DNA of 9,066 nt from a virus (Duplodnaviria > Heunggongvirae > Uroviricota > Caudoviricetes): the IMG/VR virus record IMGVR_UViG_2582580966_000020. One strand, given 5' to 3'. The position numbers were made by a program, and so were the translations under genes. Below the pieces are notes generated by a model, which saw only the letters and a program-made list of their open reading frames with translations, searched no databases and was not told where the DNA came from. This document shows positions 1-7,313 of the stretch, one piece after another (the first letter of the stretch is position 1; each line of letters opens with the position of its first letter).

Positions 1-1131
1 TCAAATGACCAGTTTTTTCCATTCCTTACCGCGTGCGTCGTTGTAAATATCGGTCATTTTTTGATTCGAATGGCCTAGCAAAATTTTGGTATCAACCCCC
101 TGCTCTCTGAACAATCGCTCTGATAAAGATCTCTGCTCATGGAAAGAGGGAGGGGTGCCATTAGCACGCCAGTTGTAATCCACAGAATCCCGGGCTTTTT
201 TAAATGCAACGGTTAATGTTGCTGGCTTAACCATCCCGCCGCGCTTAGCTGTCCCTTTCGCGTGATGGTGGTGCAATAGCCACGGACTAAGAACGCAATC
301 GCGGCAGGATGACACCACATCATCCAGGGTGAGATTTAATTTATCGCAACGCAGAGCCAGAGGGATGGCAATCCGGGTTCCTGTTTTTTGCTGTTCGACA
401 TGAAGATAACCATCCCGGATATCCGAAAATTGCATTTTGCAAATATCTGAAAGGCGCTGGCCTGTCATCAGTGCCAGCAGCATACCGCGCTGTAAAAAGT
501 AACCATCCTTTTCCGCTGCGTTATAAATCATCATCCACTCATCAAAAGTCAGTCGCTGTCTTGATATCCGCACCTGCGGTTTTTTTGCCGATTCTGCAGG
601 GTTAAAGCCTGGCGGGACATCGCCCGTTTGCTGAGCTTCCCGGAAAACATCGATCAGTACTTTCCTGAAAATTTGTCCCATTCTGTTATGTCCTCTGGCC
701 TTGTACTCTTCCAGTACTGATACCACATCTTTTACGGTTATGGCATCTAACGGTCTGGTGCCAAAACGTTCATCAAATACCCTGAGAGGGGCCGCTTTCT
801 GTTTCAGCGTGTTGAGTTTGATCTCGCCGTTTTCATATCTTTCCTGTTGAATTTTTCTGTAATTATTCAGAAAAATGGTAACGGTTGATGAACCGCCGGT
901 ATCACTAATAATTTTCTCCTGCAGACTGAGCATTTGTTCCATTTGCTGCCGGGCAAGACGGCTGTTCGCTTCTGCTGCAATAGTTTCTGCCAGTTTCTGG
1001 TCAATACTGCCGAGACCGTGATTTTTGCCTGTTATGGGATGCCTGTAACGCCAGTAAACTTTGTTATTTCTTTTGTCAAAATACGGAGATAATCCCGGAA
1101 CATCGGTTTTATATTTTCGCGGGCGCGCCAT
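1..1131 (-). CDS. int: Tyrosine site-specific integrase (lambda Int family), complete 376 aa
   Basis: ORF track 376 aa. N-terminus (RKYKTDVPGLSPYFDKRNNKVYWRYRHPITGK) resembles the lambda Int arm-binding region. C-terminus has catalytic-type motifs HEQRSL (HxxR) and LLGHSNQKMTDIY (His...Tyr). Its start is overlapped by an Xis-like gene, as in lambda xis-int. Stop codon at 1-3, so the attachment site lies left of the window. Confidence 0.9.
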   Translation of the reverse strand: MARPRKYKTDVPGLSPYFDKRNNKVYWRYRHPITGKNHGLGSIDQKLAETIAAEANSRLARQQMEQMLSLQEKIISDTGGSSTVTIFLNNYRKIQQERYENGEIKLNTLKQKAAPLRVFDERFGTRPLDAITVKDVVSVLEEYKARGHNRMGQIFRKVLIDVFREAQQTGDVPPGFNPAESAKKPQVRISRQRLTFDEWMMIYNAAEKDGYFLQRGMLLALMTGQRLSDICKMQFSDIRDGYLHVEQQKTGTRIAIPLALRCDKLNLTLDDVVSSCRDCVLSPWLLHHHHAKGTAKRGGMVKPATLTVAFKKARDSVDYNWRANGTPPSFHEQRSLSERLFREQGVDTKILLGHSNQKMTDIYNDARGKEWKKLVI

Positions 1132-1357
1132 CTTCCAGTATCCTCTTCAAAGCAGGGTGATCTGTGGCGATCACCTCCGGCTTGTTTACCATTCCGACAA
1201 AGCGAGCTTGCGGATCCACTCGCCAGCGTCTTCCAACTTTTTTGGGGAGAGGAAATATCATTCCGGCTTTAGCGTATTTACTTAACGTACTCGGAGTAGG
1301 GACCGGTTCACTGAATTCCTCTTTTGCCCACTCAGTGAGCAGAATAAGTCTTGCCAT
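1109..1357 (-). CDS. xis: Excisionase (lambda Xis-like), 82 aa
   Basis: Small ORF directly upstream of int, overlapping its start by 23 bp. Sequence LILLTEWAKEEFSEPVPTPSTLSKYAKAGMIFPLPKKVGRRWRV has the same pattern as lambda Xis (LTLQEW...RRW...IFPPP..GR). Confidence 0.8.
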   Translation of the reverse strand: MARLILLTEWAKEEFSEPVPTPSTLSKYAKAGMIFPLPKKVGRRWRVDPQARFVGMVNKPEVIATDHPALKRILEDGAPAKI

Positions 1358-1421: not shown

Positions 1422-3893
1422 TTAAAAATCAGCCTGATTCGGGATCAGTTTTTGCCAGATAACTGAAATGTATTTTGCCTGGTAACGGGCGTCATCAAGT
1501 GCATTATGGCGCTCACCTTCGAATGGAATAGCCGTTCTGGCATCGAAGTCTATGGCTTTCCCCAGCTCAACGATTGTGCGTACATCGCGATCGTTGTAGT
1601 AACGCCACGGGCAGGGGATCCCCTGCCGTTCGTATGAACGGCGCAAAATCGTGTTGTCGAAGTTGGCTCCATTTCCCCAGACCTGAACAAAAAATTCACC
1701 GGAGTTTTCGTCGATAAATTCCCGCAATTGTAACAGTGCATCATCTAACGGGATTTCATCGGTCATAATGGCAGACTGCGCTTCACGTGATTGCTTCAGC
1801 CACCTTTTAATGACGTCACGATCAATGACTCCGCCAGCAGTTTCCAGATCGATAGTCTTACTAAATTCCGGTCCCATATCTCCGGTTTGCGGATCGAAAA
1901 ATATTGCACCTATTGAGATAATCGGGGCATCAGGATTTTTTCCCATGGTTTCAAGGTCGATCATTAGATGGTCACACGTCCTGCTGGTGGATGTGATTTC
2001 TTGATGACCGTTCACCTTAATTGAGTGATCTGCCGTCTCGCCAGTTTCATTATCGCTATCGTGATGCTGATTGCCGCCAGTGTTCTCCTTGTGTGGATGT
2101 TCAGCGCCTTCCATTTCCTCCGGATTATCTTCCTGAACTTCAGGCTGATACTCTTCATCGAATGTTTCCTGGTATGTTGCGTCGCCCATTACCGCGCCAC
2201 AATCAGGGCAGTTGCCGCCGCCGGTCTGACCGCAGGCGGTGCAGACTTTTTCCGGTTCCTGTTGCGCTACTGGCTCAGGTTGTTTCGTTTCTGGCTCGTT
2301 TTGTTGCGTATTTGGGCTGTTTTGTTCCGCTTTCTGGTCGTTCTGTTCCGATTCTTGCTGGTTCTGGTTTACAGAATCGCGGGTCTGGTTCCCCTTAACC
2401 CATTTCGGATCATTCGGGTCGCTAATCCCTTCAACAAATTCACCACGTGATACTGCAAGCAGTTCATCGGCGTCAGGCTGGCTGATATTGGCTGCCTGCA
2501 TAATTTTGTTTACTTCGTCAGCGGTAACTTTTACTGACCCTGGTTGTGCGGTCGTGTCAGATGCACCAGTATTTTGTTGTGAACCTGAGTATGTACCGTT
2601 TTTGCAGGCGAAATATTCTTCTTTCGTGATTTCAGTAGCCCCAGCAGACAGCGCCTTATCCAGACCAGAAAGTTTGTTTGCGCGACCGTATTTTTCGCCA
2701 TCCTTGTCGGTGAAGAGGAAGTAGAACGGCCCCTCACGTTCTACAGATGGTTCGACTTCCACTTTGCATTCGGTTTTTTCGTTGCCCGGAATTGCCGTTT
2801 CCACTGCATCAGTTTCTGGTACTGGCGACGAGAGAGTATCAGTTGCGCTCTGATTTCTTCCTTCATCTTCAAACACGCCCTTTGTAGTCAGGTATTCAGT
2901 AATGTATTTGTTCAGTGCCACAGGGTCTTTGTGAATGTCGATCGGACGTTCACGGACAAGGCCAAAAATAGTCTGGCGGTCGTAGCGAAGGGCATCAGGC
3001 TGTTTGCGCATTGATGCCGAGATACGCTTCCAGTCTTCGCGGTCGTTGTCGATAACTTCATTTTTTGCCCAGCGATGGATGCTGCCGTCAATGTTTCCGG
3101 CATCCACATCACCAGGCCAGAGAGCGTAGGCCAGTTCGTCATCCAGTGTTTTCCATGTCTGCTTGTATTCGCGATGAATGGCAGCAATGACCGGGCTGAT
3201 TTTTCCTGTTGAATTTTCACTGTGCTGTTGATTGGCTCTGGCGCGGGCGAGATCAACAACAGACGTGTATTTTCCGGCTTCCTTGCGTTCACCTTCGCGA
3301 CGTTTTTTCCAGATGCGCATCTCTGCCTGAATTTCGGGCCATTTGGCACCAGGCTTACATTTATGCTTAACCCACCCGATGGCATGCAGCTTAAGCTCCG
3401 GATACATGGCGTTAACTTCTGGCATTTTCATCAACGCTTCAACGATATGTCCGTCGAATGTTGCCATGTCTTCCTGCAACAGTTCCTGCGCGCTAATCAC
3501 CATATCAACGGTGATGTTTTCACATGTGTCGAACTTAACCATGACAGCGTTCTGTACTTCAGGGGCCAGCTTGTCAAAAGTGACGTTCATCGGATCTGAT
3601 TCAGTCTCAACCGGGACAAAGGAAGCAGACTCCTCATCCCAGCGGTTTTCCTGCATATATTCAGCATCCCAGGAATCGAGGGCAGGGCGGGGTATACCGG
3701 GTTTATCCTCGCAGACAAGAAATTTATAAGCGCAGTCCTGAGCAGCCGGATAATGTTCCAGGAATTGCCAGTGAAATTTTGCGCGGGCGCGACGTTCATC
3801 ACCGGCTTCAATGGCAGTGGCTACAGCGACGGCACCTTCTTCCTTTATTGCCTGTTCGTCCGGAATGGCGGCGCAAATAAAGACTTTACTCAT
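1422..3893 (-). CDS. recE: RecE-like (exodeoxyribonuclease VIII family) mosaic protein, 823 aa: unknown N-terminal region, RecE-type Q/N/E-rich linker with CxxC-x7-CxxC zinc ribbon, C-terminal DnaQ-like DEDDh 3'-5' exonuclease domain
   Basis: Central segment (DADELLAVSRGEFVEGISDPNDPKWVKG...KQPEPVAQQEPEKVCTACGQTGGGNCPDCGAVMGDATYQETF, about 1971-2474) matches my recollection of the middle of E. coli K-12 RecE. C-terminal 182 aa (about 1425-1970) carry DEDDh motifs: MIDLETMG (D-x-E), WGNGANFD, HNALDD (H-x4-D). N-terminal 473 aa do not resemble the K-12 RecE N-terminus as I recall it. GAGG lies 9 nt upstream of the ATG. The symbol is given because of the linker homology; the catalytic domain is not the canonical RecE nuclease. 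Confidence 0.8.
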   Translation of the reverse strand: MSKVFICAAIPDEQAIKEEGAVAVATAIEAGDERRARAKFHWQFLEHYPAAQDCAYKFLVCEDKPGIPRPALDSWDAEYMQENRWDEESASFVPVETESDPMNVTFDKLAPEVQNAVMVKFDTCENITVDMVISAQELLQEDMATFDGHIVEALMKMPEVNAMYPELKLHAIGWVKHKCKPGAKWPEIQAEMRIWKKRREGERKEAGKYTSVVDLARARANQQHSENSTGKISPVIAAIHREYKQTWKTLDDELAYALWPGDVDAGNIDGSIHRWAKNEVIDNDREDWKRISASMRKQPDALRYDRQTIFGLVRERPIDIHKDPVALNKYITEYLTTKGVFEDEGRNQSATDTLSSPVPETDAVETAIPGNEKTECKVEVEPSVEREGPFYFLFTDKDGEKYGRANKLSGLDKALSAGATEITKEEYFACKNGTYSGSQQNTGASDTTAQPGSVKVTADEVNKIMQAANISQPDADELLAVSRGEFVEGISDPNDPKWVKGNQTRDSVNQNQQESEQNDQKAEQNSPNTQQNEPETKQPEPVAQQEPEKVCTACGQTGGGNCPDCGAVMGDATYQETFDEEYQPEVQEDNPEEMEGAEHPHKENTGGNQHHDSDNETGETADHSIKVNGHQEITSTSRTCDHLMIDLETMGKNPDAPIISIGAIFFDPQTGDMGPEFSKTIDLETAGGVIDRDVIKRWLKQSREAQSAIMTDEIPLDDALLQLREFIDENSGEFFVQVWGNGANFDNTILRRSYERQGIPCPWRYYNDRDVRTIVELGKAIDFDARTAIPFEGERHNALDDARYQAKYISVIWQKLIPNQADF

Positions 3894-3985
3894 TTTGTTT
3901 TACCTCATTACAGATTTAAGGGTGAACAAATCCCTGCCATTGCTGGCATATAAGAATGAAACCGGATATTTATTACGGAACTGTT

Positions 3986-4177
3986 TTAAAGACCTGCCGG
4001 GATTTCGTTATTATCCTGGTGAATAACTTTATCGACCGGGTAACAGTTACCGGGAATTTTCTGTTCGGTTGCTGCAGTCACACACTCCTGCATTGTCCTG
4101 TGAACACTGACTGCAATATCAACTGGCTCTCCGGAAACAAGAAAAACTGTCAGAACAAGTGCAAATGCTGTATTCAT
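3986..4177 (-). CDS. Small hypothetical protein with N-terminal signal-peptide-like segment and two Cys (likely exported), about 63 aa
   Basis: In-frame part of ORF 3986-4231. The Met at 4175-4177 forms an ATGA stop/start overlap with the upstream small gene, with AAGG 9 nt upstream. MNTAFALVLTVFLVSG is hydrophobic, followed by a polar region with C...C. Alternative starts at 4186 and 4231 cannot be excluded. Confidence 0.45.
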   Translation of the reverse strand: MNTAFALVLTVFLVSGEPVDIAVSVHRTMQECVTAATEQKIPGNCYPVDKVIHQDNNEIPAGL

Positions 4178-4362
4178 TGCCAGCATCCTTTTTGTATCGG
4201 ACGTAAACGGGCCAGCATTGAAAGAATGCATATTTTATTTAATAGCTCCCGTTCGTGTTTTCTCTTGTTAATGGCATCTTCAGTAAATACAGGGTTACTG
4301 ATAGTGACACCAATTTCAAAACAACCTTCAGACGTATTAATGTTTGGTAATAACGTTTCCAT
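4174..4362 (-). CDS. Small hypothetical protein, about 62 aa (early-left operon, kil/racC-like position)
   Basis: Part of ORF 4174-4467. ATG at 4360-4362 is preceded by GAGGA with 7-nt spacing. Stop TGA overlaps the start of the downstream small gene (ATGA). The longer 97-aa form would need a GTG start without a clear RBS. Confidence 0.4.
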   Translation of the reverse strand: METLLPNINTSEGCFEIGVTISNPVFTEDAINKRKHERELLNKICILSMLARLRPIQKGCWQ

Positions 4363-4923
4363 TATCGCGTCCTCAACAATGAATTTTGTGATGCGGTGCC
4401 TGGTGCCTCCAGGTGACGTTAACCAGTTAACAATTAACGCCGGATACAGAGAATCCACCCATAACACTGTTTTTGGTTTTAACTGTTCCGCGTGCGCTCA
4501 GCCGCATTCACCACATCACAAAATTCACTTTAAAAAGGGCGGCAGAGCAGTCACGGAGTAAAACTGATACCGCCAAACGTCACCAGAAAATTGATAACAG
4601 AGGGCGTTGCAGCGGGGTTGTCACTTAAGCGTATGGTCAACCTGACAACTCGGTGTCCTCAACGGGGAAGAAATACCCCCGCCATACTTACCGCCGCGCC
4701 ATTTCGCGGATTGCCACAACCGGAAACGCACGGTCGACGAAAATTTAACGACAGGCTATCTATGAACCAGCTACCTCGCCGGGCGCTTTCGCGTTATGGT
4801 CTGACTTTTCAGGGAAATATCCTTTCAGTAAACTGTCAGTGCCGGATGCTCACCCGTGTCCGGCGCACGCACTCCACCTCACCCGTGGAGAACTCCTTAA
4901 TCACCAACCCTCAGGAGGGTGAA

Positions 4924-5199
4924 ATGTCGACTGAAAATGATGAAATCATTAACTCCCTGATACGCCAGATTAATAATTTTGATAAAGCATTGCAACATGC
5001 TGCGGCGCGTAGTGATATAACTCTTTTAGCAATTTCATTTCTTGCATCTGTTATGGATAAAAATGAAGTCGTACGACAGAGTCTTGTTGATTATATCGAC
5101 TCGCTTCAACCCGGCACTTTCAATCATGAGAGCTTCAATCATGAGAAAGAGCATGTTAAGTCTGTAATTAATTCTCTTATTTTGAATCAAAAGAATTAA
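4924..5199 (+). CDS. Hypothetical 91-aa protein, independently transcribed accessory (moron-like) gene on the strand opposite to the early-left operon
   Basis: ATG at 4924 preceded by AGGAGG (4912-4917) with 6-nt spacing. AT-rich coding sequence. Intrinsic terminator 26 bp after the stop. Protein MSTENDEIINSLIRQINNFDKALQHAAARSDITLLAISFLASVMDKNEVVRQSLVDYIDSLQPGTFNHESFNHEKEHVKSVINSLILNQKN has no family I can recognise. The ORF-track form 4591-5199 adds an Arg-rich GC-rich extension with no RBS. Confidence 0.6.
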   Translation: MSTENDEIINSLIRQINNFDKALQHAAARSDITLLAISFLASVMDKNEVVRQSLVDYIDSLQPGTFNHESFNHEKEHVKSVINSLILNQKN

Positions 5200-5509
5200 T
5201 GCTTTTTGTTGCAAAGTAATTTTCAAGGGGTTCTATTCGAATCCCTTTCTTTTTCATTAACAAGCCAAACCCCTTATCAATGATGTCCATTAGATCCAGG
5301 AAGTATTTTTCATGTAAATCCTGGTTATCAGAGAGCTGCTTCTCTTCGTACAGCCCGATAAAGGCTCGGCGTACGTTACCGGATATATTGTCGATGGTTT
5401 CTTTTTCTACGGTACTCAGGTCAAGAGTCGCCAGTTGAGAGCGAACCACATTCGATGCCATTTCCTGGAATGGTACTGGTAAATCTTTAAATTCCATCGT
5501 CAACCTCAT
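5177..5509 (-). CDS. Hypothetical 110-aa protein (early-left operon; AT-rich; 3' end overlaps the convergent plus-strand gene by 23 bp)
   Basis: ORF track 110 aa. Start ATG 5507-5509 overlaps the stop of the upstream gene (TGATG coupling). An alternative in-frame ATG at 5497 has GAGG 6 nt upstream. No recognisable family. Confidence 0.6.
   Translation of the reverse strand: MRLTMEFKDLPVPFQEMASNVVRSQLATLDLSTVEKETIDNISGNVRRAFIGLYEEKQLSDNQDLHEKYFLDLMDIIDKGFGLLMKKKGIRIEPLENYFATKSINSFDSK
5225..5254 (+). terminator. Rho-independent terminator for the plus-strand 91-aa gene
   Basis: AAGGGGTTC (5225-5233), loop TATTC, GAATCCCTT (5239-5247): 9-bp stem with one G-U pair, followed by TCTTTTTC. On the minus strand the hairpin is not followed by a U-tract, so it is directional. 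Confidence 0.5.
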
Positions 5510-5742
5510 CAGTCAGTGTTTCTGGTTAACCAGCGACGCGCGCCAGCTTCAGTTTTAAACGTTTTGCTTCTGGTATATGTCATCGCGGTAAACGTGCCGT
5601 CCTGGTTGGGAAACACGCCGCATACCAGAGATTCGTTGTTGCCAAGCTCGATAGTATCCATGCTGACCTCATTTCCCCTTAACGCCGGGGTAGCGGAACA
5701 AAAACCTGCTGCATAGTTATTAAAGTTGAACCCTGCCGTCAT
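5509..5742 (-). CDS. Small prophage protein, DUF1391-like (YdaF/YdfA-like core of about 50 aa from the internal Met at 5661), first gene downstream of PL
   Basis: C-terminal 50 aa (MDTIELGNNESLVCGVFPNQDGTFTAMTYTRSKTFKTEAGARRWLTRNTD) match my recollection of the E. coli Rac/Qin YdaF/YdfA small proteins. The internal ATG at 5659-5661 has GAGG 5 nt upstream. The ATG at 5742 (full 77-aa ORF) has GAGG 9 nt upstream. The true start is uncertain. Confidence 0.6.
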   Translation of the reverse strand: MTAGFNFNNYAAGFCSATPALRGNEVSMDTIELGNNESLVCGVFPNQDGTFTAMTYTRSKTFKTEAGARRWLTRNTD

Positions 5743-5842
5743 GTTCTTACGCCTCGGGCTGGCTACTTAACCCCTGACCACTGCCTGGTAACTCGAGGTA
5801 TTGCCCTGTATTGTGTGGGACGGGATGGGTTGGTATGGGAAA

Positions 5843-5906
5843 ACTATAGGAAATGCCTAATTACTTGTCAATAGGCTATGCCTAATAATTTGGGCGCAAC
5901 CTAATA
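5843..5906 (-). promoter_or_regulatory. Left operator/promoter (OL/PL-like): leftward sigma70 promoter with repressor operator half-sites
   Basis: On the minus strand: -35 TTGACA (plus coordinates 5866-5871), 17-bp spacer, -10 TATAGT (5843-5848). Operator palindrome TAGGCTATGCCTA at 5872-5884, imperfect TAGGAAATGCCTA at 5847-5859, further GCCTAAT/ACCTAAT half-sites at 5855, 5880 and 5899. The same motif family is found at OR. Confidence 0.55.
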
Positions 5907-5979: not shown

Positions 5980-6456
5980 TTAAGTTCCTGTCTTGGTGAT
6001 GTTCTGGCTTTTCCGTTTTGATTCTTGATTTTTCAGATAGTTAGCTACCTTCATTTCCATTGCGGCAATGTAGGCGCGAACGTCATAATCAACCCAACTA
6101 GGCTCCGTAGCATTTCCAGATAAGATGAAAGCCACAATTGCTTTTTTTTCATCAGAGGCGGCTTGATAAAGGCTGTTTATGTCTAAAAGTTCACTTTTTG
6201 TATCTGAAGTGGATGGGGTTGGTATGGGGTATTCGTTAAGCCCCCAATGCTCTGGACCAACCACATCAGAAAAGAAACGCCATAGTTCTGGAAGTTTGTC
6301 TTTACTTATCGAACCTTTCTTAATCCAGTCATGGATTGATGGTGGTTGGACTTTGAAATGACGTGCGATTTCCGCCTTTGATTTGACGGCTCCTGATGCA
6401 ATTTTTTTGTTAATGGCCTGCTCTATCGCTCGGCCTAAGTCTTTACCACTAAGCAT
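5980..6456 (-). CDS. racR: Prophage repressor, RacR-like (CI-type immunity repressor), 158 aa
   Basis: ORF 158 aa with an HTH-like segment (SKAEIARHFKVQPPSIHDWIKKG). Flanked on both sides by operator clusters and divergent from the ydaS/ydaT genes, the arrangement of Rac racR-ydaS-ydaT. AGGAG lies about 9 nt upstream of the ATG at 6456. Confidence 0.85.
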   Translation of the reverse strand: MLSGKDLGRAIEQAINKKIASGAVKSKAEIARHFKVQPPSIHDWIKKGSISKDKLPELWRFFSDVVGPEHWGLNEYPIPTPSTSDTKSELLDINSLYQAASDEKKAIVAFILSGNATEPSWVDYDVRAYIAAMEMKVANYLKNQESKRKSQNITKTGT

Positions 6457-6904: not shown

Positions 6905-7313
6905 GCACATCCGCATGGCGATGAATGCCTGGGCATACCCTGATGGTGAGAAAGTTCCTGCAGCTGAAATAGCCCGGACTTATTTCGAACTGGGGATGAC
7001 GTTCCCTGAACTGTACGACGACAGCCATCCGGAAGCCCTGGCCCGTAATACCCAGAAAATTTTCCGTTGGCTGGATAAAGACACCCCTGATGCTGTTGAA
7101 AAAATGCAGGCTCTGTTACCGGCGATCGAAAAGGCGATGCCGCCTTTGCTGGTGGCCCGTATGCGCAGCCACAGTTCTGAATATTACCGTGAGATCGTCG
7201 AACGGAGGGATCGGCTGGGGAAGGATGTCGATGATTTTGTTGCGTCAGCGGTTGTTTTGTATGACCAGATGAATCGCGGCGGCCCGGCAGGGAATGCTGT
7301 GGTGATGCACTAA
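6888..7313 (+). CDS. ydaT: YdaT-family protein (toxic partner of the RacR-controlled ydaS-ydaT pair), 141 aa, divergent
   Basis: Starts MKIKHEHI and ends VVMH, like K-12 YdaT as recalled, with similar length. Overlaps the ydaS 3' end by 17 bp. The middle of the protein differs from K-12. Confidence 0.75.
   Translation: MKIKHEHIRMAMNAWAYPDGEKVPAAEIARTYFELGMTFPELYDDSHPEALARNTQKIFRWLDKDTPDAVEKMQALLPAIEKAMPPLLVARMRSHSSEYYREIVERRDRLGKDVDDFVASAVVLYDQMNRGGPAGNAVVMH

Follow-up and report, generated by a model that had tools for sequence, protein, structure and literature searches.

An intact YdfE-family prophage protein that joins a RecE-like central region to a predicted DEDDh 3'-5' exonuclease domain

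The DNA analyzed here is a 9,066-nucleotide stretch of a Caudoviricetes genome (IMG/VR record IMGVR_UViG_2582580966_000020), referred to below as the window, and the prophage to which it belongs adjoins ompW. One of its genes is a minus-strand open reading frame of 823 codons, which matches PHROG 2082 from end to end (1–823 of 823). The features of the locus are as follows.

1..1357, minus strand: downstream neighbors, a lambda-type integrase gene (1–1131) and an excisionase gene (1109–1357)
1422..3893, minus strand: the whole open reading frame, 823 amino acids plus stop, encoding an intact YdfE-family "exonuclease" identical to WP_032297675.1
1983..1990, plus strand: Chi site GCTGGTGG inside the gene
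3903..3906, minus strand: Shine-Dalgarno-like GAGG, 10 nt upstream of the ATG start, as read from the sequence
3986..4467, minus strand: a ydfD-like DUF1482 gene and dicB, the upstream neighbors in the putative operon
5843..5871, minus strand: pL-like promoter, TTGACA-17-TATAGT, a consensus match only (11/12)

The gene reads as a distal part of an early-left operon, with which it would be co-transcribed, because, apart from the pL-like site, no promoter-like site precedes it on its own strand; a consensus scan found none at 3894–5842. Its GC content (0.48–0.52) resembles that of its surroundings and the gaps between genes are short, and these properties, together with the lack of a promoter-like site of its own, point to an operon member and not a moron. 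A terminator-like hairpin of only five pairs lies just upstream (3935–3948, minus strand), and it was disregarded because terminator-like sites occurred at chance level (7 found, 7.6 expected). The slot that the gene occupies, between dicB/ydfD-type genes and xis-int, is the slot of recE-recT in the Rac prophage, and it is followed directly by xis and then int in the window and in three related loci (L001, L002, and L009); in two others (L010 and L011), int comes next. No annealase gene adjoins it here or at any of these five loci, which agrees with the initial annotation of the window, where the gene was described as a lone exonuclease. A PADLOC search with the five neighboring small open reading frames gave no match. 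The window contains three Chi sites, all on the plus strand (1394–1401, 1983–1990, and 7148–7155), when 0.3 are expected, and none of 200 shuffles reached three.

The protein was divided into the following segments, all encoded on the minus strand.

3624..3893, minus strand: N1, residues 1–90, a small alpha/beta domain assigned to PF27430 (YdfE_N) by precomputed Pfam calls on near-identical proteins
3111..3623, minus strand: N2, residues 91–261, helical, part of PF27432 (YdfE_C)
2859..3110, minus strand: M1, residues 262–345, a helical domain with pLDDT >90
2484..2858, minus strand: M2, residues 346–470, a disordered stretch and then a beta-hairpin/helix mini-domain (~390–431)
1971..2483, minus strand: M3, residues 471–641, with the motif SRGEFVEGISDPNDPKWVKG, a Q/N/E-rich linker, a zinc ribbon, an acidic tail, and the junction
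2199..2243, minus strand: zinc ribbon CTACGQTGGGNCPDC within M3, C551–C565, with the spacing C551-x2-C554-x7-C562-x2-C565
1425..1970, minus strand: predicted DEDDh (DnaQ-like, T4 DexA-like) 3'-5' exonuclease domain, residues 642–823, with D646, E648, D746, H796, and D801

The precomputed calls for YdfE_N and YdfE_C were made on proteins 97–99% identical over residues 1–344. By these two domains, by orthology to K-12 ydfE, and by the same gene neighbors (dicF, dicB, ydfD, ydfE, and int in the Qin prophage), the protein belongs to the YdfE family. The K-12 gene (b1577) is a pseudogene that is 97% identical to residues 1–256 and is cut by IS2E after ~256 codons, with loss of M1, the linker, and the exonuclease domain, whereas all of these are present in the 823-aa protein, which is the intact form of ydfE.

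The N-terminal 473 residues had been described as unrelated to K-12 RecE. This is correct for residues 1–261 and 346–470, for which sequence alignment found no similarity to RecE, but the statement was too wide, since residues 279–336 align weakly with RecE 294–351 (26% identity, E 5e-6). The latter match falls in M1, a segment common to all of the RecE-family proteins examined regardless of their N- or C-terminal domains, including every RecE_N-type relative. M2 is present in YdfE-type relatives and absent from K-12 RecE. The N-terminus of RecE is formed by PF06630 (Exonuc_VIII), to which K-12 RecE matches at E 6e-98; this family had no Pfam match in the 823-aa protein, where YdfE_N and YdfE_C are found instead. 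The NCBIfam equivalog model for RecE (NF007259) scored 275.5 bits, below its cut-off of 1269, and aligned with residues 246–625 only, at model positions 271–602 of 877.

The central region is much closer to RecE. Residues 474–625 align with residues 454–591 of K-12 RecE at 66% identity over 152 aa (E 1e-64), zinc ribbon included, and the earlier suggestion that the linker with its zinc ribbon corresponds to the middle of RecE was therefore borne out. The zinc ribbon block aligns with RecE 519–533 (CNACGQTGGDNCPDC) with all four cysteines kept, and the two proteins also share the motif at the start of M3 and the acidic linker. The combined Q, N, and E content of residues 496–641 is 36%. In nucleotide comparisons, the match to Rac-type recE is confined to nucleotides 1453–1856 of the gene, at 85% identity. 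The homology stops at the boundary of the nuclease domain, where RecE reads "...ETGEVADPVIVEDIEPG" and the 823-aa protein reads "...ETGETADHSIKVNGH...".

Beyond this boundary, residues 642–813 match Pfam PF16473 ("Rv2179c-like 3'-5' exoribonuclease") at E 9.3e-63, with 211.6 bits against a cut-off of 27 and profile positions 2–177 of 177 covered. The motifs that had been picked out by eye contain the catalytic residues (DLE, D646 and E648; WGNGANFD, D746; HNALDD, H796 and D801), and all five align with D7, E9, D119, H186, and D191 of T4 DexA. DexA (8KEL/8KEN) was the sole significant match in PDB sequence searches, at E 6.7e-15 with a small profile, and no other solved exonuclease reached E 1 in the search with that profile. 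The 3'-5' polarity predicted for the domain follows from its family membership, and the substrate is probably DNA rather than RNA, because the only significant PDB match, DexA, is annotated in the T4 record as a 3'-5' DNA exonuclease. PF16473 itself is named after an exoribonuclease, which leaves room for an RNA substrate. The two proteins differ in several respects: their identity is ~26%, the extra loops of DexA are absent here, W152 and D169 of DexA correspond to Y766 and A780, and DexA, from a virulent phage, is a protein of 227 aa that stands alone, whereas the domain in the window is fused to a 640-residue scaffold.

An alignment to a PD-(D/E)XK nuclease was also looked for. No Pfam match to such a nuclease was found in the 823-aa protein, whereas K-12 RecE has PF12684 at 615–850, and in a BLASTP comparison of residues 626–823 with RecE the best E was 0.47. 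Thus, Pfam and the RecE alignment uphold both the replacement of the RecE nuclease by a DEDDh domain and the three-part mosaic of N-terminus, RecE-like middle, and DEDDh exonuclease that the initial annotation had proposed. The catalytic pentad was kept in nine of the ten fused representatives examined, which are only ~50–73% identical to the DEDDh domain here. Among the fused representatives, P0234 has two catalytic substitutions, and P0264, which is incomplete in the alignment, keeps only the first two catalytic residues.

Close relatives of the C-terminal domain also occur alone. The stand-alone DnaQ-like exonucleases of lambdoid phages (mEpX2 gp31, Flotzy, and vB_EcoM-720R4) are 57–59% identical to it and have the same catalytic residues, but they comprise ~180–190 aa and have no scaffold. 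Like the gene in the window, these genes, as well as "DnaQ" of PMC12315714 and EcD of PMC12153337, are found in the early-left operon, inside the Rec module or near int. In mEpX2, the gene for the homologue (57% identical) is flanked by ssb and abc2, next to erf, whereas the window has no partner recombination genes. EcD (HAK9828821.1) is the only characterized E. coli homologue; searches of viral, genome, and metagenome contigs with a 20-mer of its reverse primer yielded nothing beyond chance matches.

Fused relatives were revealed by a search of representative clusters, the first homologue search having returned close fragments only. Two N-terminal types and three C-terminal domains (DEDDh, PD-(D/E)XK, and a third domain) were found, and both N-terminal types occur with each of the three. 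A RecT-family gene (E 2e-36) comes after P0128, a PD-(D/E)XK version, just as RecE with its PD-(D/E)XK 5'-3' exonuclease is accompanied by an adjacent recT in Rac, whereas the DEDDh versions, with a predicted 3'-5' exonuclease, have xis or int directly after them and no recT. The third C-terminal domain is that of the "RecE-2" proteins (PMC12315714), which share the YdfE-type N-terminus, M1, and M2 with the protein described here but end in ~265 aa of a different domain with no nuclease signature. Weak matches to PF04098 (Rad52-like) were present in 6 of 10 members with this domain, at the helix KKSLTDA..KKAL..LGF (best E 0.006). A Foldseek search with the third domain gave nothing at E 0.001 or better, an hhalign comparison with mEpX2 Erf was not significant, and a PDB profile search found no match; from these weak profile signals, the domain may be a Rad52-like annealase.

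The 823-aa gene is widespread among E. coli prophages, defective ones included, and had been catalogued before. The cluster at 90% identity that contains its product has 23,183 sequences, and the linker-to-DEDDh junction was found in 4021 of 5426 complete E. coli genomes (approximately three quarters). A genome often has several copies, up to 8. Many of the database entries are fragments, mostly from short contigs. The gene is also present on the isolated phages mEp460, Tritos (93.5% nucleotide identity), HannyBb, Evi, and PhiR42_1, and full-length 823-aa copies are carried by isolated viable phages. The dN/dS ratio is 0.25–0.40 overall and ~0.1 in residues 1–345, M1 included. The open reading frame is under purifying selection and is conserved in thousands of genomes, and it is not a chance pattern. 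RefSeq, PHROGs, and Pfam already have names for the family, and its architecture has been annotated before, so the finding at the sequence level is not new and the novelty that the initial annotation had implied was overstated. DnaQ-type nucleases of lambdoid early-left operons were described in 2025 (PMC12315714). The literature that we searched contained no biochemical or genetic data for the protein or any fused relative, and no functional study on ydfE, on Rv2179c in connection with phages, or on exonuclease VIII in connection with anti-defense.

We propose, with somewhat less than even confidence, that the protein is a DNA 3'-5' exonuclease of the early-left operon that serves phage DNA-end processing in phages relying on host RecBCD/RecA. 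In this view, lambdoid phages would encode a modular nuclease in their pL operon: the YdfE-type N-terminus, M1, and the RecE-like zinc-ribbon linker form the scaffold, and a Mg2+-dependent DEDDh exonuclease of the T4 DexA/DnaQ type stands where RecE has its PD-(D/E)XK domain. The protein would presumably be made after infection or induction and would most likely trim DNA 3' ends or 3' single-stranded tails on phage or host DNA. It would most likely work alongside host RecBCD/RecA recombination and replication, and not as half of a RecET-like pair, because these phages are Chi-rich, have no anti-RecBCD gene, and have no partner annealase. A previous study reported DnaQ-like 3'-5' nucleases inside lambdoid Rec modules and took Tritos as the prototype of a class that has a nuclease, has no SAP, SSB, or anti-RecBCD, and carries many Chi sites (PMC12315714). 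Two points in the same study speak against our proposal: 3'-5' single-strand exonucleases usually lower RecA-dependent recombination, and DnaQ-type genes beside int are probably not part of the Rec module.

The second of these points favors a rather unlikely alternative, in which the protein would be a defense or superinfection-exclusion nuclease against incoming DNA, such as the hydroxymethylcytosine DNA of T-even phages, in the manner of EcD ("HREX"). PMC12315714 places the near-int DnaQ-type genes among accessory and not core Rec genes, and plasmid-borne EcD digests T4 DNA and protects against T4 (PMC12153337). When the N-terminus of EcD, the only part compared, was examined, its MIDTE... 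was found to resemble MIDLE at the first catalytic motif here. The extreme spread and multiplicity of the gene in prophages also fit such a role, as does a generic DEDDh match in PADLOC (E 1.5e-5), although no specific defense-system model was matched. However, the 5hmC-recognition residues (PMC12153337) are not kept, as W152 and D169 of DexA are replaced, and D90 of DexA is kept as D718, when its loss (A78 in EcD) is said to prevent tetramers and host-DNA cleavage; both are weak points, taken from an alignment at 26% identity. Furthermore, EcD stands alone, and a gene with no promoter-like site of its own and with operon-like spacing and GC would be silent in a repressed lysogen. An enzyme directed at RNA or at defense signals, which would degrade RNA, nanoRNA, immune nucleotide second messengers, or host transcripts, is quite improbable. 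The name of PF16473, taken from the M. tuberculosis 3'-5' exoribonuclease Rv2179c, the label "3'-5' exoribonuclease" that RefSeq sometimes gives to members, and the probable early expression, which is a useful time for counter-defense, favor this reading. It is opposed by the closest solved relative being a DNA exonuclease, by the scaffold, on which the domain takes the place of a DNA exonuclease and which is elsewhere fused to PD-(D/E)XK DNA nucleases, and by stand-alone homologues inside recombination modules (Erf-SSB-exo-Abc2 in mEpX2), and the literature searched contained no paper tying the DEDDh family to signal degradation. The roles on RNA, short oligonucleotides, or cyclic nucleotides and in anti-defense that the initial annotation had raised thus found no support.

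A true recombination exonuclease of reversed polarity, which would resect 3' strands so that the 5' tails anneal through a host or unrecognized phage annealing function, seems unlikely. Single-strand annealing driven by the 3'-5' exonuclease of vaccinia DNA polymerase and XthA-dependent in vivo cloning in E. coli are analogous processes. The slot and scaffold are the same as those of RecE, and the fusion of YdfE-type scaffolds to the third domain with its weak Rad52-like signals would tie the scaffold to annealing-type recombination; however, neither fold nor profile comparison confirmed that domain as Rad52-like, the window and related loci lack an annealase gene, and the Tritos class was scored as having no SAP (PMC12315714). 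Decay was also considered, that is, a functionless remnant carried along in prophages, and we judge it highly improbable. The fragmentary state of many database entries, the K-12 pseudogene cut by IS2E, and the substitutions in P0234 would be expected of such a remnant, but short contigs account for most of the fragments, clusters at 50% identity preserve the catalytic residues, the dN/dS ratio falls well short of 1, and viable phages carry full-length copies.

Under the DNA-end processing reading that we prefer, a DEDDh version that acts without an annealase would help to explain replication and recombination in the large class of Chi-rich lambdoid phages that lack Red/RecET or Gam. It would also offer a way to study the N-terminal two thirds of RecE, a long-unexplained region that improves linear-linear recombineering. 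A more speculative possibility, to which we assign a low probability, is that the RecE-family scaffold is a general delivery platform that brings interchangeable DNA-end effectors (a PD-(D/E)XK 5'-3' exonuclease, a DEDDh 3'-5' exonuclease, or the third domain, which may be an annealase) to one target, with the DEDDh version providing annealase-independent 3'-end trimming that Chi-rich, Gam-less lambdoid phages would need to use or survive host RecBCD. If this is true, most E. coli strains would carry a recombination/replication strategy distinct from those of Red and RecET.

The subject gene is a single uninterrupted ORF of 823 codons (window 1422–3893, minus strand) that starts with ATG, and GAGG is located 10 nt 5′ of this start. 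The initial annotation described its product as a RecE-like mosaic of three parts, which proved correct in Pfam, PDB sequence searches, and the alignment with K-12 RecE. The C-terminal 182 residues (642–823, the DEDDh domain) covered the whole profile of PF16473 (Rv2179c-like 3′–5′ exoribonuclease domain; E = 9.3e-63). The T4 DexA chains 8KEL/8KEN alone reached significance when PDB sequences were searched, with E = 6e-4 for a single-sequence query and 6.7e-15 for a profile from four sequences. The catalytic pentad D646, E648, D746, H796, and D801 was aligned with D7, E9, D119, H186, and D191 of DexA. It was intact in 9/10 fused representatives, each just 50–73% identical to the subject's DEDDh domain; outside this count were the relatives P0234, with two substitutions, and P0264, which was incomplete in that alignment. 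In P0234 (752 aa, RecE-type N-terminus and DEDDh domain), the equivalents of E648 and D746 are K and A, and an inactivated DEDDh domain may have been retained on the scaffold. Sequence tests of membership placed the subject protein in both the PF16473/DexA DEDDh subfamily and the YdfE family.

Residues 474–625 were 66% identical to residues 454–591 of K-12 RecE (E = 1e-64), and this stretch includes both the SRGEF(V)EGISDPNDPKWVKG motif and a CxxC-x7-CxxC zinc ribbon; Q, N, and E make up 36% of residues 496–641. This central region is common to the two proteins, and the likeness ends exactly at the start of the RecE nuclease domain (“...ETGEVAD/PVIVEDIEPG” in RecE, “...ETGETAD/HSIKVNGH” here). 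At the nucleotide level, Rac-type recE matched only nt 1453–1856 of the gene (85%). These alignments mark the boundary as a mosaic joint of the classic kind. PF06630 (2–178) and the PD-(D/E)XK-like PF12684 (615–850) are found in K-12 RecE. Of the traits that define RecE, the subject protein has neither domain, falls short of the equivalog score, and lacks an adjacent recT. The N-terminal 473 residues had been claimed to be unrelated to RecE. However, residues 279–336 aligned with RecE 294–351 (E = 5e-6) and the alignment to the NCBIfam RecE model begins at residue 246, so the claim holds only for residues 1–261 and 346–470.

The exact sequence is registered as WP_032297675.1 (“exonuclease [Escherichia coli]”), and its 90%-identity cluster contains 23,183 sequences labelled “exonuclease,” “3′-5′ exonuclease,” or “3′-5′ exoribonuclease.” PHROG 2082 matched the protein end to end, and the precomputed Pfam calls for near-identical proteins were PF27430 (YdfE_N), PF27432 (YdfE_C), and PF16473. 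Over residues 1–256, identity to ydfE, a pseudogene of the K-12 Qin prophage, was 97%, and ydfE has the neighbours dicF, dicB, and ydfD as in the window. In MG1655, ydfE (b1577; positions 4079–4999 of the locus) corresponds to the first 256 codons of the subject gene, cut by IS2E. Based on this identity, the common neighbours, and the IS2E cut, the window holds the intact form of ydfE, and K-12 therefore lacks the exonuclease part carried by most other E. coli strains. A 423-nt probe for the joint between the linker and the DEDDh domain was found in 4,021 of 5,426 complete E. coli genomes (probe coverage of at least 80%), at up to 8 places per genome. Full-length copies with 91–97% nucleotide identity were present in the phages mEp460, Tritos, HannyBb, PhiR42_1, and Evi and in EHEC “PPompW” prophages. 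Pairwise dN/dS against three copies was 0.25–0.40 overall and approximately 0.1 in residues 1–345. RefSeq names, PHROGs, and Pfam already cover this architecture, and DnaQ-type nucleases have been described, as has the Tritos class with a nuclease only (PMC12315714). Our literature search found no paper on the function of ydfE.

The gene is part of a lambdoid prophage whose insertion site adjoins ompW, with the following features.

Features of the window
1–1131: integrase, first in gene order
1109–1357: excisionase, between the integrase and the subject gene
Beyond the subject gene, in order: ydfD-like DUF1482 gene, dicB, DicF sRNA, small ORFs, RacR-type repressor
4537–4588 (−): DicF antisense sRNA, full length (Rfam RF00039, 76.7 bits versus a gathering score of 48)
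4591–5199 (+): opposite-strand ORF within the putative early-left operon
5225–5247 (+): terminator-like hairpin
5980–6456: RacR-type repressor
Past the repressor, divergent: ydaS/ydaT-like genes, replication initiator, DUF977 gene
1394–1401, 1983–1990, and 7148–7155 (all +): Chi sites (GCTGGTGG)

In a consensus scan, the sole strong promoter-like site on the subject gene's strand was a pL-like TTGACA-17-TATAGT at window 5871–5843, and no further such site occurred between it and the gene. Because of this single upstream site and a GC content (0.48–0.52) equal to that of the flanks, we infer that the gene is a distal member of an early-left operon. DicF lies just upstream of dicB, likewise in the Qin prophage and phage Tritos. 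The ORF at 4591–5199 had no match in Pfam or PADLOC and lies in the lowest-GC stretch of the window (0.39–0.42); RefSeq gives 145 aa (approximately window 4763–5200) in a locus 98.9% identical. Its 3′ hairpin has 9 bp and a T-run. Given that sieB holds this position in Rac, the ORF resembles a moron with transcription of its own, which may be expressed in the lysogen.

Residues 1–344 matched only 175 clusters among 1.84 billion cluster representatives. When six segments of the subject protein and the two termini of K-12 RecE were mapped onto the long sequences in these clusters, a combinatorial family emerged. The N-terminus is either YdfE-type (residues 1–261) or RecE-type (PF06630), and residues 262–345 (M1) are present with both types. 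After each type of N-terminus there may come a DEDDh domain (the subject; P0132, P0229, and P0124 with PF06630 and PF16473), a PD-(D/E)XK domain (K-12 RecE; P0128 and P0225, YdfE-type with PF12684), or a third domain of approximately 265 aa with no Pfam match at 1e-3. The “RecE-2” proteins, described as having no nuclease domain (PMC12315714), are the counterpart of this third type. A Rad52-like identity for the third domain is weakly suggested by PF04098 matches in 6/10 members (best E = 0.006) and found no backing in fold and profile comparisons. P0128 precedes a RecT-family gene (E = 2e-36), like recE in Rac; xis or int came directly after the DEDDh members in 6/6 loci examined. A confident AlphaFold2 model of residues 1–470 (47 aligned relatives; mean pLDDT 84.8) contained four separate units with disordered linkers between them.

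Units of the AlphaFold2 model (approximate residues)
1–95: alpha/beta domain
111–205: helical domain
247–338: helical M1 domain
390–431: small hairpin/helix unit, confident, within window 2484–2858 (−)

The last unit (GPFYFLF..GRANKL..KAL..G..EI..EEY) is kept in YdfE-type and RecE-2 relatives and is absent from K-12 RecE.

T4 DexA, the nearest characterised relative, is annotated as a 3′–5′ DNA exonuclease in replication and host DNA degradation and has been assayed on ssDNA, dsDNA, and T4 DNA (PMC12153337); DNA is probably favoured over RNA as the substrate. The stand-alone homologues in lambdoid phages also favour DNA; they were 57–59% identical to the DEDDh domain, located between ssb and abc2, beside erf, in mEpX2 and near int in Flotzy and vB_EcoM-720R4. 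Lambdoid Rec modules include DnaQ-like 3′–5′ nucleases (PMC12315714). The same paper names Tritos as the prototype of a class of four phages that have a nuclease, lack an annealase, an SSB, and an anti-RecBCD protein, and are rich in actively oriented Chi sites, and it argues that host RecBCD and Chi are used by such phages. Tritos carries the subject gene at 93.5% identity with the same neighbours. The window contains three Chi sites versus 0.3 expected (three were reached in 0/200 shuffles), which fits this Chi-rich, Gam-less class.

Our preferred explanation, given slightly less than even confidence, is that early expression would supply a DNA 3′–5′ exonuclease borne on a RecE-type scaffold, which would process phage DNA ends where phages rely on host RecBCD/RecA and would not serve as one half of a RecET-like pair. 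Against this, 3′–5′ single-strand exonucleases usually lower recombination, and DnaQ-type genes adjoining int are held to be probably outside the Rec module (PMC12315714). A recombination exonuclease of reversed polarity would also be consistent with the slot and the scaffold, but the annealase is absent; this reading is quite unlikely. A defence role like that of EcD, the stand-alone E. coli “HREX” homologue that reportedly digests T4 DNA and confers protection on cells (PMC12153337), is unlikely: the gene resembles a member of a repressed operon, PADLOC gave only a generic DEDDh match, and, in a weak alignment (approximately 26% identity), the positions of DexA W152 and D169 are Y766 and A780, with D90 still aspartate (D718). 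The anti-defence or RNA-directed enzyme proposed initially has the Pfam family name as its sole basis and is improbable, and a non-functional remnant, contradicted by conservation and by occurrence on viable phages, is scarcely credible. The gene is strikingly common, and its discovery here would be unsurprising to a phage genomics specialist.
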